Below, in pieces: positions 280-16,028 of a stretch of 64,000 nt of DNA. How positions within the stretch are numbered: the stretch's first letter is position 1; each line of letters starts with the position of its first letter. This DNA comes from Spirulina sp. Its GTDB lineage: Bacteria > Cyanobacteriota > Cyanobacteriia > Phormidesmidales > Phormidesmidaceae. Made by a program: the position numbers and the translations under genes. The notes beneath the pieces were generated by a model. It was given only the letters and a program-made list of their open reading frames with translations. It searched no databases and was not told the origin of the DNA. Location of the stretch: positions 32,001 to 96,000 of the forward strand of contig JBIPSI010000007.1 of NCBI GenBank assembly GCA_044070495.1, in the 5' to 3' direction.

Positions 280-1923
280 ATGGTTAAAGCATGGGTACAA
301 TCACTTCAGTCAACGATTGATGTGCCCAACGTGCAGGTCGTCATGGTGGAAGCGGAGCCGATTCAGGTTATCCTCCGCAGCCAAAACTCATCTGCTATCA
401 GCCAATCTCAACCCTGGGTAGCATGGCTGAAACGCCATTGGCCCGGAGATAGCCGTGAAGTCACCCTTGAAGCCTACTGTGGCAAAGTCTGTTTGTGGCG
501 CGAAGTCGTTACCGTGACGGCTAGCATGGACCAGTTGCTTGCAGGTCTCACTTCCGACCTAGATACAGACTTTCCTATCGGTCAACCAGCCACTAACGCA
601 GCCACCGTGACAAGTGGTATCAAGGCGTCCGATTATCAGCTTGCCTGGATTGGGCTAGCCGTTATTTTTTCCTTAAATACGTTATCACAGCGTTTAGGTG
701 AGGTTGTTTCCATTAGCAATTTCCTAGAAAATGTTGGCGTTGACAGCATTTTTTTGATCTGGTTTTTGGATGCTGTCCTTCTCATTTTAGCAACGTCCTT
801 TCAGTCTTTATTAGTAGATCGAATTTTTCGGCTAACTCTGACAAAAATTGTGGCTCTTGCGGTGGCTATCTTGTTTGCTCTGTGCTGGTTACTGATGGCC
901 GTGGGAGCCCCCAGCAGCTTGACATTTACCCTAATGTTTTTGATTGCCCAACAGCAAACGGTCTTTGTCCCCGTCATCCTCTGGACCTTAGCAAATGATG
1001 TGTTCGACGTTGCCACAGGGCGGCGACTCTTTCCTCGCCTAGCGGCGGTTGCCTTCATTGGTAGCCTAGTTGGCAGTGGCATTGCGGCCCTGATGCCCCA
1101 TATTCAAGGTGGACTCGGTGTTGAGACAATTCTCCTCAGCAATGTAGCTATTTATTTAGGCATTATTTTAATCTTACAGCTAGGATTTAAGCCTGAGTGG
1201 ATTCGTAAAACTACCACCACCACGCTCAAGGCCGCAGACGTTCTCCAAGAAGGATTTGGCTTTATTAAAGATGTGCCAGCGTTTAAGTTTCTTATCCTCT
1301 CACTGGTTCTCCTCTACGCTGGCGATGTTTTGATTGAGTACTATTTCTTTGCTGCGACTAATGCCGTCTTTCCCGACCTTGACCAATTTCAGACCTTTTT
1401 CGGCATCTTCTCACTTCTGCGGCAGGTGGCCTATCTAATCATTCAGGTGTGGGTCGTAGAGCGTCTTATCAATGCGTTGGGCCTTCAGTCGATCTGGCTG
1501 GTGGCACCGATTGCAATGGTGCTAGCGGGCACGAGTGCATTGGGGGTGGCGGGACTGGCGGGGGCTGTTTTAAGTGTTACCTTGCTCAAACTTCCCCTCT
1601 ACGGTGTTGACGAGACGGCCCGGAAAAATCTCCAGGGATTAATTCCGGAAGAGCGGCGGGGTCGGGTGAGTCTCTTTATGGATGGTTACGTAATCGCCCT
1701 TGGCTCAATGATTGGTGCCATGATGGGGGCAGGGGCTTTATACCTGGGCACACAATTTGCCTTTCCGAGCCAAACTGGCCTTCGGCTGCTGGTTGTAGGG
1801 CTTGGTTGCGTTGCCATCTATATGGCGTTGCAGGTTCGCCGCACCTATGAGGCTTCGATGCTGAACTGGCGTCTCAAACGTCGTCAGCGCGGACGTTCCT
1901 CTATTCTTGATCAATTTCAGTAG
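280..1923 (+). CDS. NTT (Npt1/Npt2, TLC)-like MFS-fold membrane transporter with a ~115-aa soluble N-terminal extension
   Basis: About 12 hydrophobic segments; 'LWTLANDVFDVATGRRLFP' and 'LQGLIPEERRGRVSLFMD' resemble NTT/TLC-family motifs. Confidence 0.65.
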   Translation: MVKAWVQSLQSTIDVPNVQVVMVEAEPIQVILRSQNSSAISQSQPWVAWLKRHWPGDSREVTLEAYCGKVCLWREVVTVTASMDQLLAGLTSDLDTDFPIGQPATNAATVTSGIKASDYQLAWIGLAVIFSLNTLSQRLGEVVSISNFLENVGVDSIFLIWFLDAVLLILATSFQSLLVDRIFRLTLTKIVALAVAILFALCWLLMAVGAPSSLTFTLMFLIAQQQTVFVPVILWTLANDVFDVATGRRLFPRLAAVAFIGSLVGSGIAALMPHIQGGLGVETILLSNVAIYLGIILILQLGFKPEWIRKTTTTTLKAADVLQEGFGFIKDVPAFKFLILSLVLLYAGDVLIEYYFFAATNAVFPDLDQFQTFFGIFSLLRQVAYLIIQVWVVERLINALGLQSIWLVAPIAMVLAGTSALGVAGLAGAVLSVTLLKLPLYGVDETARKNLQGLIPEERRGRVSLFMDGYVIALGSMIGAMMGAGALYLGTQFAFPSQTGLRLLVVGLGCVAIYMALQVRRTYEASMLNWRLKRRQRGRSSILDQFQ

Positions 1924-1955
1924 CCTGCCACCACTCTCTTAAGTAGCAATTCAAT

Positions 1956-3104
1956 ATGACTGTATCCGCCGAAATCCACTCAGATAAATTACGCAGAAAA
2001 CAGCGCTTCATTAGCTTACAGATTCGGTTGCTGGTTGGGTTCACCGTCATCTTCACAGGCGTGTTCTCAGCCGCCTACTACTGGTTCTATACCTTTACAA
2101 TTGAGAGCGCTGTTGCCAGCCTGCGAAGAGATTTGAATAACACGCTGGAGGGCGCTGCATCTGGCATTGACGGTGACGAGCTGCTAGATCTCTATAAAAC
2201 AGGGGAACCCAACGCCGAGGGCTTCTCGGATGATCCTCGCTATCTGAACCAACTTGCCTGGTTTGAGACGATTCAGCAGTTAGAACCTCGTGCCTGGCCC
2301 TACTCGTACACCATGGTCGGTCTAATGGGCCATGAAACGGCTCGAAAGCAGGTGCAGGAGGATGGCAAGGTGCGCGTTGAAACCTTTCAGCCCAGCGATG
2401 ATCGCCAGCTTGTCGGCTTAGTAGACCTGTGGGCCATTCGTGATCCGGCCAAATCCTACCTATTTCTCGACATGGGTGAAGCCAGTGACTATTCTGTGAT
2501 GGCCTGGAAGCAGGATCGGTTAGTAGAACGCCCCGACCTGTATACCGATGAATGGGGCGAGTGGTTTAGTTCCTATATCCCCATCCATAATTCAGATGGT
2601 GAAGTCGTAGCCCTTTTGGGTATCGATTTCGAGGCCAGCTACGTCAACCAACTGAAGCGATCCTTAGTGAATCAGATTATTATTTCGTTCAGTCTGGCCT
2701 ATGGCAGCCTATTTATTCTAGTTTATATAAGTGCTAGATTCTTTACACAACCGCTGAAGCGGTTGAGTTTTGCTGCCCAGAAGATTGCTAATGCAGATTA
2801 TGATGGCACTGAAGAACTAAAGCTTTTGAGCAATCGTAATCTACGTGATGAATTTACCGATCTCTCTGACACCTTCATTATGATGACTGCTAAAATTAGA
2901 GGCCGTGAAGAGGCCCTAAAAACAAGAGTTCAGAAGTTGCAAATAGAAATTGACGAAACCCGTAAACAACGTGAAGTCAATGAAATTGTTGAGTCTGATT
3001 TTTTTCAAGACTTACTACAAAAAGCCGAAAAAATCCGTCGCCGTTCTAGGGATTTTCGTGATGACTCGCCGAACTTAGACGACAATCTACCCAGTGAATC
3101 CTGA
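1956..3104 (+). CDS. Membrane sensor: TM - Cache-like extracytoplasmic domain - TM - HAMP - short C-terminal coiled coil; no catalytic output domain
   Basis: Two TM helices; 'YTDEWGEWFSSYIPI...VALLGIDF' Cache-like pocket; HAMP 'QPLKRLSFAAQKIA...DEFTDLSDTF'; tail 'LQIEIDETRKQREVNEIVESDFFQDL'. Confidence 0.75.
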   Translation: MTVSAEIHSDKLRRKQRFISLQIRLLVGFTVIFTGVFSAAYYWFYTFTIESAVASLRRDLNNTLEGAASGIDGDELLDLYKTGEPNAEGFSDDPRYLNQLAWFETIQQLEPRAWPYSYTMVGLMGHETARKQVQEDGKVRVETFQPSDDRQLVGLVDLWAIRDPAKSYLFLDMGEASDYSVMAWKQDRLVERPDLYTDEWGEWFSSYIPIHNSDGEVVALLGIDFEASYVNQLKRSLVNQIIISFSLAYGSLFILVYISARFFTQPLKRLSFAAQKIANADYDGTEELKLLSNRNLRDEFTDLSDTFIMMTAKIRGREEALKTRVQKLQIEIDETRKQREVNEIVESDFFQDLLQKAEKIRRRSRDFRDDSPNLDDNLPSES

Positions 3105-3134
3105 CACCTAGAAAAGCCGTCATAACGATGTTTT

Positions 3135-3404
3135 CTGCCTGCCTAACACAATACCGAAAAGCTTTGCTTTCCCGTAGTAGCGCATCTAGTCTAATGCATA
3201 GGGTGCATAACGCCAAGGCGAGGCTAGCGCCAACGCGAAGCAATGCACTACCCAAAGCCTTGAGAGAAACCAGACCCAATATTTTAGACCTGACGCACCA
3301 GTAGGTTGGCGCGATAGCAGCACCCAACCAGCCTGAAACCTATGGCGGGTATTGGGTTCCGCTCTGCTGTACGTAACCTACTTGAAGATATATCAGGCAA
3401 TCAG
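3135..3404 (-). mobile_element. Degenerate MITE (type A core) carrying a nested ~123-bp element at 3178-3300
   Basis: Matches the reverse complement of 43240-43387 at both ends; flanks cgatgtttt/cgacctttt (7/9 TSD match); nested piece has imperfect 17-bp TIRs (12/17). Confidence 0.65.
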
Positions 3405-3430
3405 CGACCTTTTAGTGAGGATATCCCGTT

Positions 3431-4711
3431 TTGACTGCTCTGGTCATCTGCAATACCTATGAATCCTACGGTTCTTTCCTTCGCGATCTCAAGGGTCCCG
3501 TAGACCATGTTCATAGCGTTGGGGATCGCTCACTTTTTTACCTTTCCTGCCCTAAGATTTTAGTGACGAGTATTAGACCGCCCCATATTGATTATATTCA
3601 GTCCCTAGGCTACACCATTCAGTGCTTGTCACCCCGTCAGCCCAGTCCATCTATCTGTCGCGATTTGATAGATGACCCTGAACTCCGTCAGGCCCTTTTA
3701 GCCGCGATGGAGCATACATCACAGGTGGAGGTGATTCCCTACTGCAATACCCCTGATTTTTTTCAGATGGTGGCCCACTATCAAGCTGAATACCCGCTGG
3801 AAATCACAACACCGGAATCACCATCGGCCCAACTAAGCTGGCTTCGTGACGCCTTGGACCGCAAATCTGTATTTTCAATGTTGGCACCTTCACTTTTGGA
3901 GGGCACGGATTGCAAGCTAACCCCCCGTGTCGTGGCTGACTCGCTAGCCCAAGCGGCGGCAGCGGTTGAATCCTTTCTGATTCAAACCCAGTCCTGTGTT
4001 GTGAAGCCAGATGCCGGCTACCTCAGCTTGGGATTGATGCGATTCGACCCTGAAACAGCATGGACAAGGGAGAAAATCGAGGCACACCTTGGCACCAATG
4101 CAGCCCTTGGCCGTCGAAAACTGTCCGTTGAATCATGGATTCCCAGCGGAACAGACTGCCAATCACCTTCCGTTGAAGTGTTTGTACCGCACGAGGGCAA
4201 TCCCTACATCACCTATATTTGCGACCAGGTTTTCTCGGATTCTAATCTGTTCTCTGGGATTAGCCTGCGGCCTGAATTTTACGAAACAGCCTGGGCACAG
4301 ACCCTCAGCACAGGAGCATTGGCCATCGCACGACGGCTTCAGAGCTTAGGCTACTGTGGCTACTTCGATCTCGATGCAGTGGTTGATCCGGATGGGCAGG
4401 TATATGTCGTGGAGATGAATCCCCGTCGCACCGGTGGCACCCATGTTCATGAAATGGCGGAATTTCTGATTGGGAAAGACTACCGCAATAAGGCTGTGCT
4501 TTTGAGTGGTTCACTAACCCTTAAACGTCATTGTACGTGGCCAGAATTAGAGATGACTCTGCGGGATAATGACTTGCTATATCCCCAAGGACCAGTCGTT
4601 CCAGTACAGACATCGTCGTTGCCTGGAGGAGTTTTAAGCTATGCGGTGATAGCGGCAGATTGGGGCACGGTGAAGTTTTGGCAGGGACGGCTGCTAGCGT
4701 TATTAACGTAG
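3431..4711 (+). CDS. ATP-grasp domain protein (putative amide/peptide ligase)
   Basis: 'CVVKPD', 'GYCGYFDLDAVVDPDGQVYVVEMNPRRTGGT' (ExNxR motif); TTG start behind GAGG. Confidence 0.8.
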   Translation: MTALVICNTYESYGSFLRDLKGPVDHVHSVGDRSLFYLSCPKILVTSIRPPHIDYIQSLGYTIQCLSPRQPSPSICRDLIDDPELRQALLAAMEHTSQVEVIPYCNTPDFFQMVAHYQAEYPLEITTPESPSAQLSWLRDALDRKSVFSMLAPSLLEGTDCKLTPRVVADSLAQAAAAVESFLIQTQSCVVKPDAGYLSLGLMRFDPETAWTREKIEAHLGTNAALGRRKLSVESWIPSGTDCQSPSVEVFVPHEGNPYITYICDQVFSDSNLFSGISLRPEFYETAWAQTLSTGALAIARRLQSLGYCGYFDLDAVVDPDGQVYVVEMNPRRTGGTHVHEMAEFLIGKDYRNKAVLLSGSLTLKRHCTWPELEMTLRDNDLLYPQGPVVPVQTSSLPGGVLSYAVIAADWGTVKFWQGRLLALLT

Positions 4712-4830
4712 TCATAGCTAACGGATGGGGCGGGCTCGACTGATCAGACTGCATCGTAGGTACTAACCGTCAGATAGAGCGTCCATTTTTGGATATCTCT
4801 GCCCTTCTGCATACGAGATTGGGTATAGGA

Positions 4831-5880
4831 CTAGTCTTCGTCGTAGCGATTCCGGATGATTTTTGACTTTTCAGCTATTCCCTTAAAGAAGTTATTATCG
4901 GCCATATCTTGTACTTCTTTCGCGTGTTTTTTCTCATCGATTTCAGTGTGCAAATCTGATGCCTGTTGCTTCAGCTTAAATTCACGCATTTTTATATGTT
5001 CGAGCATAGCCTTTAAGACCATAGCCAACTGGGTAATTTCATCTTCGATAAACGGCTGGGAGACCTCATTGAGGTCTTGACTATAGTTGCCATCCTCAAT
5101 GTCGTGGACAACTTTAGTAAGATTAATTGTGCAGCGGATGACACGATTAGCCAGAATGTAAATCAGGATAACTAGGATCGCATAACATCCTAAAAATGTG
5201 ATCAATACACGCTGGAAAATACCGCGCTTAATTTCGCCTAGGTACTCAGCAGTAAGATCGGCTCCAATGCCAAAACCCGGAACAATATTGCCCTGGCTAT
5301 CGCGAATAGGGGCATAGGCCGTGATCCATCCTCCCCACTGATCATAGAGGGGTACCTCAGGCCGATGGACAACAACCCCCTTCTCAAGGGTTTCAATCAT
5401 TTGCGGACTGGCGGCGTAGGGCTCTAGAAACTTAACAGACTTAGAAGGATCATAGTCCGACCAAAGATCTACTAAAAAGATGACTTCGTCATTGGTCAGC
5501 ACTGGTTCGCCCACCCGGCGCGTGTCTGGACGATTGCCACGCACGAAGGAATAGGGCCAAACGTCAGGATTGACATTGTGTACTTGCTGAAACCAATCCA
5601 TTTGCTGCCGATAGAGCAGGCTGTCGGAAAATCCTTCACGATTGGGTTGAGCCTCTCGGTAAAGGCGGATCATGTCCTCCCCAGAAACCCCAGCCGCCGC
5701 CGCAAGGAGAGCATCCTCTAGGTTTTTCCGCATTCGCTGAACCGCCACATCCACCGCAAAATTGTAGAGGAGATAAAAGAGGGTGCCAAAGGTCGCCGTG
5801 AAGAGGACAGTAAAAATGATTAACAGCTTAGCCCGAATACTAATAAACTTAACCGGCTTTTTCAAAGATTTTTGAATCAT
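4831..5880 (-). CDS. Membrane sensor (Cache-like + HAMP, no output domain); paralogue of 1956-3104
   Basis: Shares PNxEGFSD, WPYS, LVDLW..DPxKS..FL, YDxWGxW and the C-terminal EIDExK...EV..FF motif with the first copy. Confidence 0.75.
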   Translation of the reverse strand: MIQKSLKKPVKFISIRAKLLIIFTVLFTATFGTLFYLLYNFAVDVAVQRMRKNLEDALLAAAAGVSGEDMIRLYREAQPNREGFSDSLLYRQQMDWFQQVHNVNPDVWPYSFVRGNRPDTRRVGEPVLTNDEVIFLVDLWSDYDPSKSVKFLEPYAASPQMIETLEKGVVVHRPEVPLYDQWGGWITAYAPIRDSQGNIVPGFGIGADLTAEYLGEIKRGIFQRVLITFLGCYAILVILIYILANRVIRCTINLTKVVHDIEDGNYSQDLNEVSQPFIEDEITQLAMVLKAMLEHIKMREFKLKQQASDLHTEIDEKKHAKEVQDMADNNFFKGIAEKSKIIRNRYDED

Positions 5881-6433
5881 AGTCTTTCCCCATATCGAAA
5901 TCCCCGAAATCAGTATGATTGATCGTGAGGGCTAGAAGTTGCTGCTGTCTAAGACACTCTCTTTTCGCTTATGCCAAGCCAATCGCCCGACTAACATGCT
6001 GATATTAAAGGTTTGAACCACTTTCAGTTTTGACATCAGGGCAGTGATGGCTGCAACAAAGGCAACGATGCAATGGAGATTACTCCTTAATCAGTCTATT
6101 CGCGTTAGCCAGCCTGTCATGGTGAGCATAGCAATAATTAACGACTCTAAAATACTATCCTAGCCCAATCATATAGCCCTGAGCATCATTATCCAGAGAG
6201 AGGAAATCTCTAGCCACTATATCTAACGACGATGATTTCGGATAACTTTTGTGCGAAGGAATTTCCGAGCAGCAAAAGCCCGAGTAATAGGGTAAGGTTG
6301 GCTTCCGAAGAACGATGCACAGGAAGTTTCGGCATGGCAATCTAGCGGTAACGGCAGGGATGGAGACGACCGGGGGCTAGCTAATCAATACTGACATCGG
6401 CAAGGGATATCAGGGAAATCGGCCCAAAAGGGT

Positions 6434-7531
6434 CTAGTAATCATCAGGTTCTTGGTAAATGGCGGTACCTCCGGTGTAGGTTCGCAGAACGATCTGCTGG
6501 TCAGGGCCTTGGCCGAGGATGGTTGGTGGCGACACCACGACCTTGCCGCCGCCACCGGGGGCATCCACGACGTATTTGGGTACGGCATAGCCGCTGGTAT
6601 AGCCCTGTAGCTGGGAGATGATCTCCAGTCCCTTGGCAATGGAGGTACGAAAATGCCCTGCTCCGGCCACCAAGTCACACTGGTATAGATAGTAGGGGCG
6701 CACCCGGTTTTTGACGAGCCGGTGCAGGAGTTGGCGCTGTACCTCCACCGTGTCGTTAATGCCCGCCAGCAAAACACTTTGGTTGCCGAGGGGAATGCCA
6801 GCATCCGCTAGGCGTGCGAGGGCCAAGGACACCTCGTCCGTGATCTCACGGGGATGGTTGCTGTGGATGTTGATCCAAAGGGGATGGAACTGGCGCAACA
6901 GGTCACACAACTCAGGGGTGATGCGCTGGGGCAAGAATATCGGCACTCGACTGCCAATGCGAATAATCTCGATATGCTGGATGGCCCTCAATTCCTTGAG
7001 CAGGTGCCCTAGGGCCACATCGGAGAGCGTAAGGGGATCCCCGCCGCTGATCAGCACATCGCGAACTTCAGGGTGCTGCCTAAGGTAGTCGATTTGAGCT
7101 TCTAGGTTGTCTAATCCGGGAGTTTGGTGAAAATCCCCTACGATACGACTGCGAGTGCAGTAGCGGCAATAGCTGGCGCAGTGCGTCGTGACAATCATCA
7201 GCACCCGATCCGGATAGCGATGAACCAGTCCCGGCACCGGGCTTTGTTTTTCCTCGCACAGACTATCCACCATCAGTTCGTCCATCGGCTTTAGCTCTCG
7301 CCCCAAGGGGATCACCTGCCGCCGAATGGGACAATTCAGATCCGTCGGGTCAATCAGCTGGGCAAAGTAGGGGGTAATGTCCACCCGAAAATGACCTGGT
7401 GCACTCAGTCCTTCTCGTTCCTCAGGGCTGAGGTGGATCAAATCTTCTAATTCGTCCATTGAATTTAGACGGTGCTTGAGCTGCCAACGCCAGTCCTGCC
7501 AGTCCTTTGTGGGAACATCCGTCCATTTCAT
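6434..7531 (-). CDS. kamA: KamA-family radical SAM enzyme, lysine 2,3-aminomutase
   Basis: CxxxCxxC (CASYCRYC), 'HRYPDRVL', 'SGGDPL', 'YQCDL', 'VVDAPGGGGK' with the PLP lysine. Confidence 0.9.
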   Translation of the reverse strand: MKWTDVPTKDWQDWRWQLKHRLNSMDELEDLIHLSPEEREGLSAPGHFRVDITPYFAQLIDPTDLNCPIRRQVIPLGRELKPMDELMVDSLCEEKQSPVPGLVHRYPDRVLMIVTTHCASYCRYCTRSRIVGDFHQTPGLDNLEAQIDYLRQHPEVRDVLISGGDPLTLSDVALGHLLKELRAIQHIEIIRIGSRVPIFLPQRITPELCDLLRQFHPLWINIHSNHPREITDEVSLALARLADAGIPLGNQSVLLAGINDTVEVQRQLLHRLVKNRVRPYYLYQCDLVAGAGHFRTSIAKGLEIISQLQGYTSGYAVPKYVVDAPGGGGKVVVSPPTILGQGPDQQIVLRTYTGGTAIYQEPDDY

Positions 7532-7981
7532 AATGCTGTACTCTAATACATAATGGTGTCATTTCGGGCACCCTGCATAACTCAACCTATGCCTAGCATG
7601 CCCACTTCACCGCTAGTCTTCCACCTTAAAACAGAGGGGAAAACTGCATTGGGCAACAGCGACTAAGCTTCGATGTGCTAGGGACTTTAGGTAAGTTCAC
7701 TCGATTCCAGACTAATTTCGCATCAACTTTGGCCTAAATCATCGGTTTTCATTAAGATAAGCCGCTGTTTTGACCTTGCCATGGATCAAGCTGACAGGAT
7801 GAGGAAGACAGTGAACCCACCCCAGAGACCTTGCAGGCAAGGCGTTTAGGATTATTCTGACTTAGACATTCTGCTCCATCGGCTAACAGCTTATTCGTCA
7901 AGAAATCGCTACATATAATAGTTTTCTAACAGATGACGCGAATCTGACCAATGCTAACCCTGCGAACAATGGACTTAGCTC

Positions 7982-8128
7982 CTGACGACCTGGCACAGCG
8001 ACTAGGTAGGTTAGGTGCAGCGGAGCGAAACCCAACACTCGCCGAAGATTTGGGGCTTGCTGAGTTCTGCTATCGCGCCACCCAACCTGCGGATATAGAG
8101 GCTTTTCGACGTTATGTTCGGCAGCCAG
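7982..8128 (+). mobile_element. MITE, type A core (REP-like GTAGGTT...AACCT[A/G]C hairpins)
   Basis: Colinear and similar in length to 43240-43387; no clear TSD, so probably decayed. Confidence 0.7.
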
Positions 8129-8165
8129 GCCCTTGGTTTTACTTCATTTAACTGAAGTTTGCCAT

Positions 8166-8295
8166 CTGGTTGACTGACAAAACTTGCGAGAACCCAAATC
8201 CGCCAAAGGGTCAGGAGACCTGACCCCTACATTATCCAAATCCTGTAGGGGCGCGGTTTCCGCGTCCGGCGCAGGATCTTCTGTCAGTCAACCAG
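8166..8295 (+). mobile_element. 130-bp MITE, type B core
   Basis: Perfect 14-bp TIR CTGGTTGACTGACA; flanks gtttgccat/gcttgccat (8/9 TSD match); near-identical to 22987-23116. Confidence 0.9.
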
Positions 8296-8395
8296 GCTTG
8301 CCATAGAAACCTAGAATAATAAGCATAGAAAAAAATCATCTATCCTGATGCTTCGGATATTTTCGCCAAAAATTTTCATCATGAATCCAAAATGA

Positions 8396-8842
8396 TTATA
8401 CCGAAGCGACTTCAACCAGGGTTAGGTTAACAATACTACGTACTGGCGTACCATCCGGAAGAAACATGGTCAACTTATAGCTGAGAGATTGTACAAAGCA
8501 GCGTAGATACTCTTGACTGCCCCACGTAAATACATAAATTGGTGGTCGATCTTTGCCATCTAAAAATTCAACAGCCTGGCGAAATTTACTGATGTATTCC
8601 GTGTAAACATTGCCACCACTTTCGTAGGTATCAAAGACAATATTACTAATAGTTAATCGCCAAGGTTCTGGAGAGCCAAAGCTAATTTTTGGCAGTCCAG
8701 AGTCTGTCCGAGAACCAGGGGATGAATTGAGATTAACAGTGCGATCAAAGTTTAACTCCGTGGGGTTGAACATAAATTCAATCGTATCAATCGTGCTGTT
8801 TCCCTCTCGTGCAATTAGCTTAGCCTTAACTGGATTTGTCAT
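8396..8842 (-). CDS. CIS tube-initiator protein (CIS_tube / Afp7-like N-terminal domain), no LysM
   Basis: 'FMFNPTEL', 'RPPIYVFTWG', 'SLSYKLTMFLPDGTPVRSIVNLTLVE'. Confidence 0.85.
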   Translation of the reverse strand: MTNPVKAKLIAREGNSTIDTIEFMFNPTELNFDRTVNLNSSPGSRTDSGLPKISFGSPEPWRLTISNIVFDTYESGGNVYTEYISKFRQAVEFLDGKDRPPIYVFTWGSQEYLRCFVQSLSYKLTMFLPDGTPVRSIVNLTLVEVASV

Positions 8843-8852
8843 AGCCTTAGTA

Positions 8853-11800
8853 TCATTTCAAACGTTTGTCGTAAAGTCTTCCGTGGCGTTCTTTCTCAAT
8901 CATCAATCGTTGCCGCATCCTGTAATAAACTTCCTGGGCTAGTTGTTCCAAAGCCCAGGATTTGTCGGCATTATCTTTCGGTGCACGATTCTGATTTGCC
9001 TCAATGGTTGTGAACGGTGTATCCTCCTTAGCTTGAATCAGAAAACTGGGCTGAGACAAATCCGAATGAGCAGTATTTTGGGTTTGAATGGCAGGTGGAT
9101 TACGAAATTTGAGGACAGGCTTAGTACGGGAAATAGAGAGTCTTCGCTGAATTGACGTGGTTGATAATGGCGATGACGTCGTTAGGGGTATAGAAGATAC
9201 GGTTGGCGAGGTCTCTACGATTTCCTGGGATAATTTTGGCTCAGTTCTATCCCAAGTTGTTGGTTGCATTTTTGGAGAACCGTCCTGAACTTGAGATGCT
9301 ACTAAGTCTGCTAAATTTTGCCACTCTGACGGCAACACTGAGTCATTGTCATCCGCTAAACGTTGAATCATTGACGCATCCATCTGAGATGGTTGAGCCA
9401 TTTTAGATAAATCAGATTCAGATTGTTGCCTGAGCCATGACTGTTTTATAGATTCAGGATCTGTATCAGGTATTCGAGAAATTTTGTCTGTCTCAGGATG
9501 GTGGACAACGTCAGATAAATCCGCATGAGGCTGTATAGGTAGCGTTGCAATTGAAGATAACTGAATTCCAGCTATATCTAAATTATGTTGACTTTGTGCA
9601 GCATTAGTGACGACAAAAACGCCTTGATTTTGATCAGAGCTTTGGTCATATTTTAGCGGCAATTCTATCTCTATTTCTCGACGAATTGAAGTATCTTTTT
9701 CCAAGCCATTTTCAATTATTTGCTGATTAACTTCAGGCTTTCTTTGAAGCGATCTAGGTGGAGACTGAAAATCCATCAGAATGGGCAAGTTTTCATGGTC
9801 TTTAGAATTTTTTTGCAAGCCTATATCTTGTGAAGAAGCAAGGTTTTCTGGCCAAGTTGGTAATGGTTTAACGGTCCCATGGATGACTGTATGCTGATCC
9901 AAGTGCTTATTTATGTTTTGTTCTTGGGCAGCACTAGCACCTACAATCATTGGGTTTGTGGCGTTGATTGCTGACACATTACGTTCTAAGGAGTTGTCTA
10001 ATGCCAAGTCCTCCGACTTCAAGAGGCGGCTAGACGGTGACCCTAAAGCTGAATGTGTCGATTCAATGGTTGACGAAAAGCTGGAAATACCTTCACTCAA
10101 TCGCTGAATACTGTTGGCCGACGCATTTGCCGCAGAAAACAGATCCCCAGGGTTTAGTGCATTTACGGCAAATATTGATGTAGCACTGGATGGGATAGTG
10201 CGATCTCCAAAACGAGATATCGAAGTATCTTGAGTAGATGATTGTTCTTGATTAGAACTTTGGAGATTTTCATTTTCTGAAAATTCAGGATTCGTAGTTG
10301 ACAGACTTGTTAAATTATCAAAATGGCTAGCGTGTGTTCTCTGAATATTTTGGAAAGATACGTTCTGAAACTGTGGCAGCCTGTCAGCGGCAATAGAATC
10401 TACTAAAGGCGTTTTTTCTTCGGTTTCACCATCTGTTGAGAAAAAAGGATTGATCTCGTTAACTCGCTGAATTTGACTAGGAAGTACAGCTTTAGTCATC
10501 GAGATCACCATAGGATGGTGATTAACTACTTGAGCATTGACAGCGACAGTTCCTGCGTCAAAGCCTTGAACGTCAGGCGTTTGAATATTGTGGGGCTGAA
10601 CGCTCTCGAAATTGGATAGGGAGTCAGCAGAATATAGCCTAGTTGAAGATATTATATCTGGCTCAACAACATCCTTGTTTTCGCTATTTTTTTGAATGAT
10701 ATCTGGTAGCAAATCTTCGGAGTTAGGTCGGCCAGCAAGATAAGCTTGACTAGATTCTTGAACAGCTTCGGAGGAGTTATCCACAACCGTAGGCCATAAA
10801 TCAGACCTTGGGGTAGATGCCGCTGGTGAGGATATCGAACTGACTGGAGTGCTCGACTTTGTATCGCGTGATAGTTGAATAGTATTAGATGGCGTGTCGT
10901 TATATTTTGGCAGTATTTCAGGACTGAGAAAAGATGTAAGAGACGGAGATAAGTGGTCTAAAGAAAGGTTTGGATCAGGATCTCTGTGGAGTTGGATCCT
11001 CTCTAGAGAAAGAGCTTTATCACTGGAAGAGATTTGCTGACCTCGCTGAATAACAGTATGATTTTGTGAAAGTTTAGACGAGGATCCGAGATCTAGTGAG
11101 GTCAGTTCATTTTCTGATCCGATAACGCTAATTTGCTGATCAACAGGTAGCTTTATCGGGTCAGATATAATAGGTGAAAAAAAAGTAGAATATCTTTCAG
11201 GATACTTTTGAACTTTATCAAAGGTTTTTCCTTCAATACTCGACAGAAATTCAGGTGATAAATCCGCACTCAAAGTGTTAGATTTATTATCTCCAGGGTC
11301 AACATCATTTTCCTCGTTGGTCTTCTGAATCTGTTTTAGGAATGAGCCTTCAATACCAACTAAAGGTTCGGATTCTGATCCCTCAGATACTGAAATTGGT
11401 GCCGAAGATATAGAAGATAAATCTTCTGAGATGGTCGATTCCTCTCCATGGAATTTCTGAACTTTATTAAATAATGGTGATTCAGCGTTTAATGTAGGCT
11501 GACTATCTAAGGATGCGTCCTTAGATATCGTACCAGACAGGAAATCTACATGGTCTGAGGACGTATCGCCAGAATCTTTTTCGTCCTGAGATAATGTTTC
11601 TTGATGATCAGTGAAAGATTTAAATTCTGAAGATGGAGTTGCAGGGATAGATGAATTATCTATTGAGGAAAGGCCGCTTTCTCCATTAACTTTATTAATT
11701 GGATTAGGAGGTGAAATCTGAAGATTAGATACAGCCTTGGGAATGGAATGTGGTGTTGAAGATTCAGGATAGCCATCCAGAGGAGCCGTAGAGTCTTGCT

Positions 11801-14800
11801 CGACAGTTCTCTGTATTGGCTGATCGGATATGTTTCCAATATCTGTTTGAAGCTCAAATCCAAAGTCTAACTTTGAAGATGTGGATAGATTATTTATTAG
11901 GAAGTTAGTATTTTCTTCAAAAGCATTCTGAATTTGCCTGTCTGAACTTGCTTTAAGACGAGCAGGCTCTTGAAAGGTTGACGTTGTTAATTCAGCCTCA
12001 GATAGGGTATCTGCCGAAGAAGGTATATTGTCATCGGCTACTCTCTGAATTGGATAAGATACCTCCCCCTCAATATGATTTCGCAATTGAGGCTCTAGCG
12101 CTTTAGGTTCAGACACGGGAATATTATTGTTCGAGGAGATAATATCATCCTCGGCCATGCTCTGACTCTGACCCGAGGAGATATCTCTAAGATCTCTGGT
12201 TGGTTCAGCACCTAAATTGAGATCAGATACTAAATCAGATTTAGGTGCAAATTCTATATTTGTGAGAGAATGATCTGCTTGACTAGTTCTTTGAGTCTGT
12301 TCAGGGGATGTATTCTCAGGGATAATGACAGGTTTTGCATCTAAGTTTATGGTTGCAGACAAAGATTCTACGATTGTTGGGTTCGGGAAACTTTCTTCGT
12401 TAGACTCCTGAAGGTTATTGGGCGATGATAGTTCAATATCCGTTGGGGTTTCACGAGCTAAGTTGTCTGACTGATATGTAAGGTTTGTGTCCGTTGAGAA
12501 TGTTGAACTACTTTCGCTAGACTTCTGAATTTGCTCAGGTATTGATCCCTCAATAATAGGTTGTGTTTTAGTCGATAAGGTTTCTACCGTTGTCTCAGAT
12601 GCCACATTAGCTAAAAATTCGGGGTAGTTCCCCTCCATTATCGGAATAGACGGGGAGGATAGGTTTTCAGCAGCGCCTAAGGCCTGAGGTTCTAAGGCTG
12701 GGATTGTAGGTATAGGCCCTGAATCTCCTACGGATGCAGTGCTTTCCTCACGCATTGTTTGATTCTGATCGAATGACAGCGCATCAAGATTTATTGGAGG
12801 GTTATTAACAAAATTCTCTAGATTATGTGCAGAGGCTATATCTGTTGAGGATGTGGAAAGGCTTTCATTGGCTTTCTGAATCTGCTTAGGTGCTGCCTCC
12901 TCGATATCTACAGGCGTTTGAGTAAGAGGTGTTGTTGCAGAAGCAGAGACTATCTCCGTTTTTTCAACGGAGATTTCTTCACTGGCCCTTTGCAATTGAT
13001 CAGGCAATGCTTCTTTAATGTGTGGTTGTTCGCTAATAACTAGATTTGTCGTTTGGAACGCAGAATTTATATTTCCGGTAAACGTAGATCTTGCCTCATC
13101 AAATTTCTGAATCTGTTCAGGTATGAGTGTCTCGATGTCAGAATGAGTTTTGGACAATGAAGCTTCTGTAGTTAACTTAATTATGGCATTTGTCGAGGAT
13201 ATAGGATTATCCTCATTAACCTTTTGAATTGGGCTGGATGACACCTCTTCAGCAGCGGCTAGAGGTTGAGATTCTAAGGCCTTGATTTCAGGGATGGGTG
13301 CTGCATTCGTGGGTGGCATAGAGCTTGCTTCACGAATGGTCTGACTCTGCTCGAATGATGATACCTGATCAATATAGACTAGAGGTTCATCAACGAGATT
13401 CTCTGAATTATGTGTAAAGGCTAGATCTGTCGAGGATGTCAAACTATTTTCATCAGCTTTCTGAATCTGCGTAGGTACTACTTTCTCGATATCTAAGGGC
13501 ATTTTAGGCGGTAGATAGGCTGTCGTTGAAGTAGAGGCTGTATCTATTGAGGGTACAGACTCTATATCCCTTGCAGGCACAGAATTTTCCTCACCAGTCC
13601 TCTGCACCTGTCCAGGCAGTGTACTTTGGGCACGAGTCGAAATCTCCGTATCTAAGGATGCGTCTACCAAGGGAGATGCTGTATCGGTGGAGGCAATAGC
13701 ATCGACCTCGATCTCTTGTTGTGGTTGCCCTAGCAAAAAAGATTCAGTATTTTGAGACGTTGCGGTTTTAAGTAGTTGTATCGTAGGCGTGGATAAGGAC
13801 TCTGCTGACAATGTTGAGCCTTCTTCCCTATCTCTCTGGATCGACACAGCCGATGGATCTTCAATATCTATTGAAGATGTAGATGTTAAGACATCTGCTG
13901 CGGAAGAAGAGGTTTTCTCTGTGGAGATGCGAGTATTTCTTTCGCTATGATCCTGGGATTCTTGATAGGATAGTTGCTCTCTCTCAGAGACGTTTTCAGG
14001 ATCTGGCGATTTTTGCGTAGAGGATGATGGGCCGTCTGCAATCAATTCAGCACGACTCTCACTGGATCTTTGAATCTTTTGAGAGACTGAATCACTAGCT
14101 CTCAATGAAATTTCAGGAAATGCCGGATTCTGCGCAGAGAATGGTGTGCCCTCTGACAGCAAAAGACTACTTCTTTTAATAGAGCCTTGACTAAGGTCAG
14201 GAGCCAAGTTTTTAGGGGCCAAGTCTTCGCTCCTGATTAAAGCTTCATCGTTAACGGATTCTATATCCAAGTCTGATGCGTTGACGACAGAAGCCGTTGG
14301 GTTGCTTTCGCTAGCCCTTTGAATAGGCGTAATTTCTGCTAGCACTGTTTCAGGAAAATCGGTAGAGATTGGGGAATTTTCTATATGTTCTAGCCCCATC
14401 TCCGTGGGGAAAGCAGCACTGCTCTCAGTGACACCATGGGAATGTTGTGGGGCTGAAGGTTCTGATTGGATTAGATTAGGCTTAAATAGAATTTCTGATC
14501 GTTGTAAATCGGCATGGATAAATGGTTCAGCTTCTGTTGTTTCCGGTAATAAGTTTGTCACCTCGGCCATGCCACTATCCATCATTTGCTGGGGCTGAAG
14601 TGGCGCAGGCGGTGTAGAGAAATCGACGATGACAGGCAAATTTTCGTGACTTGGCGGAGTATGGGCTGGCATCCCCGGCGTGGGGCTAATTCTAGTTGTC
14701 GGTTGGGATGTGGAAGCCTCTGTTGGAGTAACATTCTTGGCCTGAATAGCCTGGGCAGATGTAACGGTATTTTCAGTAAAGAGATTACGAGAAATTTGAG

Positions 14801-16028
14801 GTTGATTCGCTGTTGATGTATGACTGCCTGAAACTGATGTATGTCTCTCTTCAGTATTTGGAGAAGATTCTAGATTTTGCCCTTCCTTCGGACTGTGGGA
14901 AATATTACCCTGGACATCTTCATTCACCTTGACGTTCGGTCGCTTTACTCCGAGGACGTTATTCTCCTGGTCGCTACTCTCTGGAGAAGAGAGTCTTTGA
15001 ACAGAGAAATTGTCAGGGTTCGATTTAAGAGTGCTCAAATCAGAAAATATGGGCTTAGATTCTACGACAATGGCTTGCTTGTCAACCGAATCCTGAGAGT
15101 CTAACATGGAATTAGGCAGGGATTTTCCTGACCGCAACTCCTGGGATAATACGCCGTTCTCGACAATATTAGCCTGACTGTCTAGCGCTGATTGGATCGC
15201 ATTGCTATCCGGAATAATAGCTTGTGAAAAAGTGCGATTATCTAGGTCAAAAGATGTATTTAAATTGGCAGAAGAAGGCCACGTGTTTTCTGGAATGACG
15301 CGATCTTCTGCACTATTTCTTTGGATTATGTTATTGTCGGAGGTGTTTATTGCTTTGGGCAGACTGCTACCTGATGTAGAACTTCCCAGGAAAGTACGTT
15401 CCTGAGAAATTTCCCCCTCGGGAAATATGGTTTTAGATGTTGTCTCCTCTAAATTAATGTTGAGGGAAAGCTTGTGATTTTGAATAATCTCATCGTCAGG
15501 ATTTATCGCAGCCTTAGGTTGGATAGGTGCCGACGCAGGAGCGTCTATCTCAGGGCGCTTTTGGATAACTAACGGTTCAGAGGTTAAGACAACTTTAGGG
15601 GCAAGGTTTTCTGTCCTAATATCCTCTGAAAAGATATTACTTGGGGGCGATAAATTCTTAGGATTTGAGGTAAAAATAGAGGGTTTATGTTCTGAAGTAC
15701 TATCCTCTGACAAGGATTGTGTTTGAATCGGATAAGGCTTAACGTTAGAGAGATGACTTTGAGGTGACGTGCTCGCCGTTGGGGAAAATCCTTGATGAAA
15801 AAGTGGATCTGAGACAGATGATGATGCAAATTCAGTATTCTCTGGAGAGAATTGTCTGTGAAGCTGAGCAGCCTCGCTAGGTGAAGTAACTTCTTCTTCA
15901 ATGGGGTCAATGTCGGGCAAGCCAGCGGGGAAAAAATAGGCTAGATTTAACACCCCCAAGGAATGTGCCCCTAGGGGCTGGTGGTGTCCTAGGGGTTGGT
16001 TTGCAGAGACCAGGAGAGAATCGACCAT
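8853..16028 (-). CDS. 2391-aa S/T/P/E-rich low-complexity CIS-associated protein with repeated [IVL]Q[RK] motifs (tape-measure/cargo-like)
   Basis: Long uninterrupted ORF in the tail operon; C-terminal 'LEQLAQEVYYRMRQRLMIEKERHG' helix typical of CIS-locus proteins. Confidence 0.7.
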   Translation of the reverse strand: MVDSLLVSANQPLGHHQPLGAHSLGVLNLAYFFPAGLPDIDPIEEEVTSPSEAAQLHRQFSPENTEFASSSVSDPLFHQGFSPTASTSPQSHLSNVKPYPIQTQSLSEDSTSEHKPSIFTSNPKNLSPPSNIFSEDIRTENLAPKVVLTSEPLVIQKRPEIDAPASAPIQPKAAINPDDEIIQNHKLSLNINLEETTSKTIFPEGEISQERTFLGSSTSGSSLPKAINTSDNNIIQRNSAEDRVIPENTWPSSANLNTSFDLDNRTFSQAIIPDSNAIQSALDSQANIVENGVLSQELRSGKSLPNSMLDSQDSVDKQAIVVESKPIFSDLSTLKSNPDNFSVQRLSSPESSDQENNVLGVKRPNVKVNEDVQGNISHSPKEGQNLESSPNTEERHTSVSGSHTSTANQPQISRNLFTENTVTSAQAIQAKNVTPTEASTSQPTTRISPTPGMPAHTPPSHENLPVIVDFSTPPAPLQPQQMMDSGMAEVTNLLPETTEAEPFIHADLQRSEILFKPNLIQSEPSAPQHSHGVTESSAAFPTEMGLEHIENSPISTDFPETVLAEITPIQRASESNPTASVVNASDLDIESVNDEALIRSEDLAPKNLAPDLSQGSIKRSSLLLSEGTPFSAQNPAFPEISLRASDSVSQKIQRSSESRAELIADGPSSSTQKSPDPENVSEREQLSYQESQDHSERNTRISTEKTSSSAADVLTSTSSIDIEDPSAVSIQRDREEGSTLSAESLSTPTIQLLKTATSQNTESFLLGQPQQEIEVDAIASTDTASPLVDASLDTEISTRAQSTLPGQVQRTGEENSVPARDIESVPSIDTASTSTTAYLPPKMPLDIEKVVPTQIQKADENSLTSSTDLAFTHNSENLVDEPLVYIDQVSSFEQSQTIREASSMPPTNAAPIPEIKALESQPLAAAEEVSSSPIQKVNEDNPISSTNAIIKLTTEASLSKTHSDIETLIPEQIQKFDEARSTFTGNINSAFQTTNLVISEQPHIKEALPDQLQRASEEISVEKTEIVSASATTPLTQTPVDIEEAAPKQIQKANESLSTSSTDIASAHNLENFVNNPPINLDALSFDQNQTMREESTASVGDSGPIPTIPALEPQALGAAENLSSPSIPIMEGNYPEFLANVASETTVETLSTKTQPIIEGSIPEQIQKSSESSSTFSTDTNLTYQSDNLARETPTDIELSSPNNLQESNEESFPNPTIVESLSATINLDAKPVIIPENTSPEQTQRTSQADHSLTNIEFAPKSDLVSDLNLGAEPTRDLRDISSGQSQSMAEDDIISSNNNIPVSEPKALEPQLRNHIEGEVSYPIQRVADDNIPSSADTLSEAELTTSTFQEPARLKASSDRQIQNAFEENTNFLINNLSTSSKLDFGFELQTDIGNISDQPIQRTVEQDSTAPLDGYPESSTPHSIPKAVSNLQISPPNPINKVNGESGLSSIDNSSIPATPSSEFKSFTDHQETLSQDEKDSGDTSSDHVDFLSGTISKDASLDSQPTLNAESPLFNKVQKFHGEESTISEDLSSISSAPISVSEGSESEPLVGIEGSFLKQIQKTNEENDVDPGDNKSNTLSADLSPEFLSSIEGKTFDKVQKYPERYSTFFSPIISDPIKLPVDQQISVIGSENELTSLDLGSSSKLSQNHTVIQRGQQISSSDKALSLERIQLHRDPDPNLSLDHLSPSLTSFLSPEILPKYNDTPSNTIQLSRDTKSSTPVSSISSPAASTPRSDLWPTVVDNSSEAVQESSQAYLAGRPNSEDLLPDIIQKNSENKDVVEPDIISSTRLYSADSLSNFESVQPHNIQTPDVQGFDAGTVAVNAQVVNHHPMVISMTKAVLPSQIQRVNEINPFFSTDGETEEKTPLVDSIAADRLPQFQNVSFQNIQRTHASHFDNLTSLSTTNPEFSENENLQSSNQEQSSTQDTSISRFGDRTIPSSATSIFAVNALNPGDLFSAANASANSIQRLSEGISSFSSTIESTHSALGSPSSRLLKSEDLALDNSLERNVSAINATNPMIVGASAAQEQNINKHLDQHTVIHGTVKPLPTWPENLASSQDIGLQKNSKDHENLPILMDFQSPPRSLQRKPEVNQQIIENGLEKDTSIRREIEIELPLKYDQSSDQNQGVFVVTNAAQSQHNLDIAGIQLSSIATLPIQPHADLSDVVHHPETDKISRIPDTDPESIKQSWLRQQSESDLSKMAQPSQMDASMIQRLADDNDSVLPSEWQNLADLVASQVQDGSPKMQPTTWDRTEPKLSQEIVETSPTVSSIPLTTSSPLSTTSIQRRLSISRTKPVLKFRNPPAIQTQNTAHSDLSQPSFLIQAKEDTPFTTIEANQNRAPKDNADKSWALEQLAQEVYYRMRQRLMIEKERHGRLYDKRLK

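Follow-up and report, generated by a model that had tools for sequence, protein, structure and literature searches.

The window analysed here is a stretch of 64,000 nucleotides from one contig of a Spirulina sp. genome. Close to its left end, at 280–7531, lies a cluster of five genes that brings together an aminomutase of the KamA family, an ATP-grasp ligase, a transporter and two membrane sensors. All five open reading frames (ORFs) are present in a table-11 ORF listing at the positions given in the initial annotation, whose description of them as an NTT-like transporter, two paralogous sensors, an ATP-grasp ligase and KamA holds. Three genes are read on the forward strand: T547 (280–1923; 547 amino acids), an NTT-like transporter of the major facilitator superfamily (MFS); S382 (1956–3104; 382 amino acids), an sCache-HAMP membrane sensor; and AG426 (3431–4711; 426 amino acids), a putative ATP-grasp amide ligase of the PGM1/BesA clade. 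On the reverse strand, in order of transcription, are KamA365 (6434–7531; 365 amino acids), a C-terminally short lysine 2,3-aminomutase (LAM); psiT′ (5935–6341), the remnant of a second transporter; and S349 (4831–5880; 349 amino acids), a second sCache-HAMP sensor. The region appears to be a composite of module A (T547-S382-AG426) and module B (KamA365-psiT′-S349), arranged tail to tail with KamA365 and AG426 convergent. Thus, the one self-contained five-gene unit proposed at first gives way to two related modules and a decayed second transporter. Below, T, S and AG denote the families of the transporter, the sensor and the ligase, and T′ and S′ the module-B transporter and sensor; G numbers denote genomes, G000 being the window's own (97% complete), and L numbers denote loci.

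The cluster has a GC content of 49.9% against 56.7% for the genome, at the 3.9th percentile of 2430 segments of 7.25 kb. The low GC noted earlier applies to T547, S382, AG426 and S349, whose GC at third codon positions (GC3) is 0.50–0.52 (0.679 ± 0.085 in 1378 long ORFs of the genome), but not to KamA365, whose GC3 of 0.656 is genome-typical. Two repeats resembling miniature inverted-repeat transposable elements (MITEs) bound the cluster on the right, as had been stated, at 7980–8130 and 8166–8297 (about 85 and 80 genome copies by blastn), but two more dispersed repeats of this kind lie inside it. These occupy the spacer between S382 and AG426 at about 3190–3270 (about 22 copies) and 3297–3410 (about 70 copies), and the latter belongs to the family of the 7980–8130 repeat in the opposite orientation. 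Compared with orthologues, the ratio of nonsynonymous to synonymous substitution (dN/dS) is 0.04–0.13 for all five genes, with dS saturated (T547, 0.13 against G071; S349, 0.06 against G066; KamA365, 0.08), and from these ratios all five genes appear to evolve under purifying selection.

Gene order in related genomes and metagenomes

KamA-family genes are found in 18 of 173 genomes of the order (E ≤ 1e-60), and seven of the 18 belong to the window's genus and encode the short LAM (72–100% identity). The ATP-grasp gene is present in five of the 173 and, within the genus, in just G000 and G071. In four congeners (G066, G091, G103 and G078) the LAM heads an operon KamA-T′-S′, in which T′ is an NTT-like carrier of 447–458 amino acids, 30–33% identical to T547, and S′ is the orthologue of S349 (61–73% identity); the G091 contig begins at the end of T′, and its S′ lies on a separate contig. 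A SET-domain gene follows S′ in G066, G103 and G078 (L116, L118 and L119), and in G103 and G078 a MinD/ParA-like gene comes next. In two congeners the T′, S′, SET and MinD-like genes also have a lower GC than their flanks. No tblastn match to the SET gene at 1e-4 was obtained in G000. The small SET protein is of the lysine-methyltransferase type and could methylate β-lysine or a protein.

The 553-bp gap between KamA365 and S349 retains both ends of T′, as detected by tblastn with the T′ proteins of G103 and G078. The N-terminal end (T′ residues 1/6–37/44) is matched at about 6225–6341 with 59–62% identity (E 8e-5 and 3e-4) and the C-terminal end (residues 370/377–454) at about 5935–6168 with 37–40% identity (E 1.5e-11 and 3.4e-11), so that about 44 N-terminal and 85–95 C-terminal codons are left, the latter reaching to about 6196, and about 315 internal codons are deleted. 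In G071, T-S-AG is accompanied by a convergent KamA 59 bp away, and T′ and S′ are wholly lost. G000 and G071 therefore share the T-S-AG-KamA block, at 18–30% protein divergence, and have no flanking gene in common. The loss of T′, partial in G000 and complete in G071, in both carriers of the block is in keeping with T547 now standing in for T′. Because a contractile-injection-system tube gene and a giant ORF stand upstream of KamA in G078 as they do in the window, the module-B site is orthologous in the two genomes. In the window this pair lies directly upstream of KamA365 at 8396–16028 on the reverse strand (tube gene, PF19266 at 69.5 bits; giant ORF, 2391 amino acids) and is very low in GC (0.38–0.45; GC3, 0.34–0.36). 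Horizontal acquisition, raised as a possibility at the outset, is favored by the low GC and by the different flanks in G000 and G071, but no donor can be named; a hint of Chloroflexota for the T-S-AG clade comes from the Atlas taxa of a single neighboring gene.

The order of module A is repeated in metagenomes. Among 80 metagenome loci with an AG alignment, some of them near-duplicates (L035/L036, L038/L042 and L026/L027), 31 have an S homologue, which in 30 cases immediately precedes AG on its strand. T is present in 21 of the S-positive loci, always upstream of S and on the same strand. The genes of T-S-AG often abut, and the S-AG spacing in these other loci is 51–157 nt or an overlap. One extra gene stands between T and S in 11 of the 21 loci, encoding a Ddl-like ligase in L038 and a protein of 237–242 amino acids without a Pfam match in L031, L032, L035 and L054. 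The L031 copy (237 amino acids) has no NCBIfam match; its nearest Atlas clusters carry GNAT (Acetyltransf_1) on 11–17% of members and are commonest in Chloroflexota, and its weak PDB match to thialysine N-epsilon-acetyltransferase (E 0.028) is a lead only. Judged by gene order, the constant core of the module would be an NTT-like MFS transporter followed directly by an sCache-HAMP sensor. This core appears to carry a variable cargo, consisting of an ATP-grasp ligase, a KamA-family 2,3-aminomutase or both, and often a MinD/ParA-like ATPase.

The aminomutase, the ligase and the transporter

KamA365 aligns with the solved L-lysine 2,3-aminomutase of Clostridium (2a5h) at 438 bits over residues 4–365. 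Its CxxxCxxC motif (CASYCRYC) and the pyridoxal phosphate (PLP) lysine of GGGGK align with the same motifs in 2a5h. The Asp residues of YQCDL and VVDAPGGGGK, which the initial annotation had read as the mark of a lysine-type enzyme, indeed align with chain positions D293 and D330 (counted on the alignment), which we take to hold the ε-amino group of lysine in the Clostridium enzyme; arginine-type relatives differ at the second site, with YHCDN and IVTTKLG--K in the corresponding places. The score for the AblA-type LAM model TIGR03820 is 496.3 bits, below the cut-off of 525.4 because model positions 365–417 are absent (positions 4–364 of 417 are matched). The subfamily model TIGR00238 is passed (348 against 199.2 bits), and KamA365 falls below the cut-offs of the models for glutamate 2,3-aminomutase (412.7 against 650), arginine 2,3-aminomutase (AAM; TIGR04468, 393.2 against 600) and EpmB (262.3 against 369.3). 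Many annotated LAMs of 420–530 amino acids are 66–70% identical to KamA365, those of cyanobacteria and Chloroflexota being about equally close (67–72%), and no second KamA-family gene is present in the genome. KamA365 thus has the features of a C-terminally short but otherwise canonical LAM, and we infer conversion of L-lysine to β-lysine from its identity to LAMs and the conserved substrate-binding Asp residues. It differs from KamA/AblA in the loss of the last ~50 model positions and in its partners, a transporter-sensor pair and an ATP-grasp ligase.

The usual KamA partners had been found missing from the window, and the same can be said of the whole 97%-complete genome. The best match to AblB (TIGR03827) scores 24.2 bits against a cut-off of 205.1, in a search whose control passed in 2 of 14 genomes, and the best match to EpmA (TIGR00462) scores 251.2 against 286.9 and lies in a 532-residue frame of the size of lysyl-tRNA synthetase. 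Neither BKACE/Kce (search control positive in Deinococcus) nor a condensation domain of nonribosomal peptide synthetases (NRPSs; control positive in E. coli and B. subtilis) was found in the genome; the search for lysine 5,6-aminomutase (PF09043) had no positive control and carries no weight. A different, classical use of β-lysine is seen in another genus of the same cyanobacterial family, where G051 (L120, 3657–10950) encodes a full-length LAM (540 bits, over the cut-off) directly after an NRPS of 1982 amino acids with the domain order C-A-T-TE.

AG426 matches PF13535 at 33.4 bits (cut-off 27). Its sequence matches in the PDB are the Streptomyces "ATP-grasp peptide ligase" 8ynd (2e-9), the pheganomycin peptide ligase PGM1 (3wvq/3wvr; 3.8e-6) and BesA (8yi6; 0.0025). 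The same three are the best structural matches of its AlphaFold2 (AF2) model (mean predicted local confidence, pLDDT, 95.6) in Foldseek, with E-values of 2.7e-26 (TM-score 0.79), 1e-23 and 2e-20, respectively, and TM-scores of 0.75–0.81, and a clear gap separates them from the next tier, PurK and biotin carboxylases at 1e-15. Ligases of the PGM1/BesA type form amide bonds with non-proteinogenic amino acids. The predicted fold thus points to an amide ligase of the PGM1/BesA structural type, and the amide-bond chemistry proposed for the ATP-grasp protein agrees with these nearest folds, which are peptide and amino-acid ligases. The identity to PGM1, BesA and 8ynd is just 17–20%, the score of 28.1 bits for the BesA equivalog NF042917 (cut-off 750) falls well short of orthology, and the genomic partners of AG426 (KamA-family, T, S and MinD-like genes) are different ones. 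Pre-ATP-grasp domain matches occur in relatives of AG426. A HMMER search of the whole library gave 519 representative relatives at E ≤ 1e-3 and 74 at 1e-30, and a 70%-identical ATP-grasp protein comes from Leptolyngbya sp. BL0902. No precursor-peptide gene for the ligase was found; an ORF of 61 residues at 6155–6340, tried as a candidate, was rejected because it is the 5′ remnant of psiT′. Another lysine-linked small cluster is found on plasmid pAtA74a_b of Agrobacterium tumefaciens (L152), in which an AG-family homologue annotated as hypothetical lies between a diaminopimelate decarboxylase gene and creatininase-family and MATE efflux genes, near a pair of acyl-homoserine lactone (AHL) synthase and LuxR genes.

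T547 itself matches no Pfam family even at E ≤ 10, and it does not reach the gathering score of PF03219. Some of its relatives (35–39% identical, about 445 amino acids) carry precomputed PF03219/PF07690 matches, a locus homologue matches TLC at 5e-8, and 28 of 30 Atlas feature matches of T547 are TLC/MFS clusters. The term NTT-like can be kept as a distant likeness, visible via relatives and the Atlas, but not as a Pfam match of the protein's own. T547 is an MFS protein of the type with 12 transmembrane helices, carries an N-terminal extension of ~120 residues that the 445-residue relatives lack, and is 71% identical to its G071 orthologue. With TLC/NTT transporters (PF03219) it shares a distant sequence and feature likeness, and it differs from them in always being paired with an S sensor. 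This context makes an amino-acid derivative a likelier substrate for T547 than a nucleotide.

The sensors and a MinD-like ATPase

S382 and S349 are 33% identical over 355 columns (E 6e-68). The AF2 model of S382 (pLDDT 80.9) consists of a transmembrane segment, an extracytoplasmic mixed α/β domain of the sCache/PAS-like type, a second transmembrane segment, a HAMP region and a long helix. Its Foldseek matches include a WalK model (1.2e-9), an sCache chemoreceptor (7.8e-6) and dCache sensor domains. HAMP is matched at 19.9 bits, below the cut-off of 25, in S382 and at 42 bits in the G189 orthologue. The input part is thus shared with sensor histidine kinases and chemoreceptors, but domain searches found neither a kinase (HisKA/HATPase) nor a methyl-accepting chemotaxis protein (MCP) output domain in S382 or S349; the S homologue of G027 is fused to HisKA-HATPase-REC.

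The initial annotation had called the sensors output-less and had viewed both as detectors of one product. The second view is not supported, each sensor being part of its own module, and the first is contradicted by a conserved C-terminal helix that is linked genetically, and by predicted binding, to a MinD-like ATPase. The C-terminus is the most conserved part of the S family (QRE..LK.QV.EL.IEIDE.KR.KQV.EIVD.DFFQDL..KA..MR.R), and the long helix of S382 ends in the conserved motif IEID...V..I...DFF..L. Exactly four proteins of the genome carry the C-terminal motif pattern: S382, S349 and two sensors on other contigs (C12:11834–14846, L125; C16:99401–101722, L124), one HAMP-type and one PAS-type, that end in IEID...V..I...DYF. 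Both of the latter lie in operons with MinD-like paralogues that are 50–52% identical to the cluster-linked MinD-like protein. The third such gene, C9:77809–78564, lies outside the window and is an orthologue (82% identity) of the gene beside S′ in G103, which brings the genome total to three. In the metagenome loci, a MinD-like gene is present in 10 of the 31 with S, typically directly after AG, and in 4 of the 49 without a visible S, three of which have less than 10 nt upstream of AG.

Complex prediction with the C9 MinD-like protein and residues 296–368 of S382 gave a score of 0.78, against 0.01 for the best of three controls, a level that 116 of 157 solved complexes attain, compared with 2 of 215 mismatched pairs. 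At least 83% of contacts recur between runs, the partner has a pLDDT of 75 or more, and the predicted contacts fall on residues 324–357 of S382, that is, on the conserved motif and the most conserved columns of the family. Together with the gene linkage, the model predicts that the C-terminal helix of the sensor docks on a MinD-like ATPase instead of a kinase.

The MinD-like ATPase scores below every curated cut-off, the best being the archaeal-type MinD subfamily (89.5 against 201.75 bits); its G103 orthologue matches MinD 1hyq in the PDB at 7.8e-16. Weak NCBIfam matches to BcsQ and polysaccharide tyrosine autokinases are also seen. The deviant Walker A motif of MinD/ParA proteins has a signature lysine; the P-loop of the MinD-like protein reads RGGTGKS in 10 of 10 aligned sequences, with arginine where that lysine is expected. 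As in MinD-MinE and in ParA with its partner peptides, the model puts a partner helix on the surface of an ATPase of the MinD/ParA superfamily, but here that helix is supplied by the C-terminal end of a membrane sensor of the sCache-HAMP type, and no MinC/MinE or ParB gene was seen adjoining the MinD-like gene. ParA-like positioning of chemoreceptor arrays is known.

Readings of the cluster

The reading we favor, with a probability of roughly one half, is that a composite of two T-S modules makes a cationic amide derived from β-lysine, moves it across the membrane and senses it. As to the nature of the product, the way it is carried and what the sensors bind, we infer the following. KamA365 would convert L-lysine to β-lysine, and AG426 would spend ATP on linking β-lysine, as an amide, to one of the common amino acids, to a short peptide or to another β-lysine. 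T547, in place of the lost T′, would carry the cationic product over the membrane, export being the most likely direction. S382 and S349 would recognize a ligand outside the cytoplasm by their sCache domains, the simplest candidates being the product and β-lysine itself, and the signal is predicted to pass via HAMP and the conserved C-terminal helix to the MinD-like ATPase at C9:77809–78564.

A failure of the families to co-occur in other genomes had been named beforehand as a possible refutation of such a link; they do co-occur, and the link is not refuted. AG-family genes stand beside KamA-family genes in at least five separate contexts. G000 and G071 combine AG with a lysine-type KamA; G189, from another cyanobacterial family, has a single operon T-S-AG-AAM-MinD-like; AG lies beside an arginine-type aminomutase in G027 and G026, and a partial match in L081 is AAM-like; and in L058 it lies beside an aminomutase 33% identical to KamA365. 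The arginine-type assignment is supported by the AAM model (cut-off 600), with 662 bits for G189, 669 for G027 and a range of 662–669 over G189, G027, G026 and G028. An EamA gene adjoins the AG-aminomutase pair in G027, L058 and L081, and G027 also has an agmatinase-family gene. BlsG, an arginine 2,3-aminomutase, takes part in making blasticidin S; genes for nucleoside antibiotics were not seen. In seven high-GC contigs (L071, L073, L074, L075, L077, L080 and L090), AG is accompanied by a LAM at 51–55% identity, which is full-length (442–456 amino acids) in the six with a complete gene; the LAM of L080 scores 563 bits against 525. The conjugative plasmid pTHIMO01 of Thioflavicoccus mobilis carries an AG homologue (30–32% identity) followed directly, as an AG-KamA pair, by a short lysine-type KamA (48%) with both Asp residues kept. 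It differs from the window in having no T, S or MinD-like gene in 13.6 kb, and its neighbors encode SbnA, an ornithine-cyclodeaminase-like protein, a 2,4-diaminobutyrate (Dab) transaminase and a Ddl-like ligase, among them enzymes that form 2,3-diaminopropionate (Dap) or Dab. A quick AG tree, with SH-aLRT support only and with 16 of 86 loci excluded for an AG frame below 380 residues, places the aminomutase-linked AGs in at least four separate places.

The sensor and the aminomutase also tend to be found in the same genomes of the order. S is present in 18 of the 173 genomes, as is the KamA family, and both occur in 14, spanning four genera, while a KamA-family gene is found in just 4 of the 155 S-negative genomes; the genomes are related to one another, so the counts do not amount to a statistical test. 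A third subtype, AblA_like_2 (493–503 bits against 396), occurs in genera g5 and g15, where it adjoins a MinD-like gene and lies within 1.5–10 kb of T-S in G013, G017 and G157, and far away in G007. In L145 and L146 (G157 and G017), the genes after AblA_like_2 and the MinD-like gene are, in order, one for a cyclic-nucleotide-binding "bacteriocin-type transport-associated" protein, an NHLP bacteriocin export set (HlyD and two ABC subunits) and, on the opposite strand, S and T.

Several findings weigh against the favored reading. KamA-T′-S′ stands without an ATP-grasp gene in G066, G091, G103 and G078 (E ≤ 1e-10, AG426 as query), which implies that β-lysine can be handled without AG. No aminomutase was found in the available flanks of any of the 31 S-positive metagenome loci, 11 of which continue for 3 kb or more past AG, nor was KamA found in 8 kb downstream of the 76%-identical AG fragment in L019. 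T-S-AG in its commonest form may act on a different substrate, or its aminomutase may be encoded at a distance, as in G007. The LAM is replaced in related clusters by an arginine 2,3-aminomutase or an AblA_like_2 enzyme. In the quick tree, the AGs of the window and G071 sit on a long branch (1.52), apart from the others. Insertions break up module A in both genomes: MITEs in G000 and, in G071 (L008), an insertion sequence (IS) whose DDE transposase (8606–9793, reverse strand) lies in the 3′ end of the S gene and severs its last ~45 codons; these codons are found again some 1.3 kb further downstream, at 9899–9976. Finally, the complex model was built from alignments of our own making and may echo solved complexes of MinD with MinE or of ParA with partner peptides, so it speaks for likeness rather than binding. 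The earlier proposal that β-lysine is ligated into an amide thus gains from the recurrent adjacency of AG and KamA, but the association is not an obligatory one.

Some of the same findings lend credit to a different account, possible but on balance doubtful, in which rearrangement juxtaposed two unrelated modules, KamA serves module B only (as a source of free or methylated β-lysine, in decay) and AG426 ligates another substrate. The four congeners with KamA-T′-S′-SET and no AG agree with it, as do the metagenome T-S-AG loci without a flanking aminomutase, the T′ pseudogene, the host-like GC3 of KamA365 beside the lower values of the other four genes, and the convergent order, by which KamA and AG are not co-transcribed. 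However, the juxtaposition has been kept in G071 despite wholly different flanks and 18–30% protein divergence, adjacency recurs in the separate contexts listed above (in G189 as a single operon), and KamA365 is apparently still under purifying selection after the loss of T′.

A role as a compatible solute is improbable. An amide-neutralized β-lysine would accumulate in salt stress, with T for uptake or recapture and S as an osmo- or solute sensor. Methanogens use N-epsilon-acetyl-β-lysine as an osmolyte, a LAM (the TIGR03820 model is named AblA) catalyzes the first step of that route, and the possible GNAT-like gene between T and S in some loci would suit it as a lead. Against this, the genome has no AblB, osmolyte genes are rarely accompanied by a dedicated sCache sensor and a MinD-like ATPase, and the sister clusters, with β-arginine-forming enzymes, an agmatinase-family gene and EamA exporters, look more like secreted secondary metabolism. 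Uptake and assimilation, in which T would import a basic amino acid, a β-amino acid or a nucleotide-like compound that S senses outside and KamA and AG process inside, is a still less probable account. It could draw on the nearness of T to TLC carriers of the importer or antiporter type, on the outward-facing sensing domain of S and on the reversibility of LAM in lysine fermentation; yet no downstream lysine-fermentation gene was found (no BKACE), an ATP-consuming ligase is unusual in catabolism, and EamA exporters stand in for T in sister clusters. Least probable is a spatial or envelope system, in which T-S and the MinD-like ATPase would together make up a membrane machine with a set position, the enzymes adding cationic β-amino acids to a component of the envelope or of an exopolymer: MinD/ParA-family ATPases commonly position membrane complexes, the MinD-like protein has its weak BcsQ and autokinase matches, several loci have glycosyltransferase, dTDP-sugar and Ddl-like genes nearby and a D-Ala-D-Ala carboxypeptidase gene lies upstream of the cluster, but the neighbors change between loci and no gene for a lipid carrier or polymerase recurs alongside the module.

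Beyond the favored reading of the window, a wider and more tentative proposal can be made for T-S-MinD-like as a new membrane signaling and transport unit. In it, a kinase-less receptor would control an ATPase through a MinE/ParB-like helix and would be hard-wired to an NTT-like carrier, and the unit would make, release and sense cationic β-amino acids (β-lysine and β-arginine) and their ATP-grasp amides or oligomers, possibly a new class of secreted signals or allelochemicals in cyanobacteria and probably Chloroflexota. The enzyme families are each known, and the assembly appears to be new: as judged by titles and abstract openings, no account of a KamA-family aminomutase and an ATP-grasp ligase combined like this was found in the open literature, and work on β-lysine and aminomutases in cyanobacteria describes, in those parts, no such cluster. 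If the favored reading holds, it would add a fourth bacterial fate of β-lysine to its roles as an osmolyte, in EF-P modification and as a fermentation or NRPS building block; amides of β-lysine and β-arginine would be natural products made without NRPSs, and a class of "output-less" HAMP sensors would be explained, their output going straight to a MinD-like ATPase. The module is a compact one, and the named strain Leptolyngbya sp. BL0902 has one form of it.

Left of the window, the gene first taken to be divergent is a same-strand S13 D-Ala-D-Ala carboxypeptidase gene, with a pair of extracytoplasmic function (ECF) sigma and anti-sigma factor genes upstream of it. The HIP1 palindrome of cyanobacteria has zero copies across the 64-kb window, although the nearest named relatives mark the genome as that of a Leptolyngbya-like cyanobacterium. 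At 55757–64000, another giant ORF on the reverse strand (at least 2747 amino acids) extends past the end of the window.

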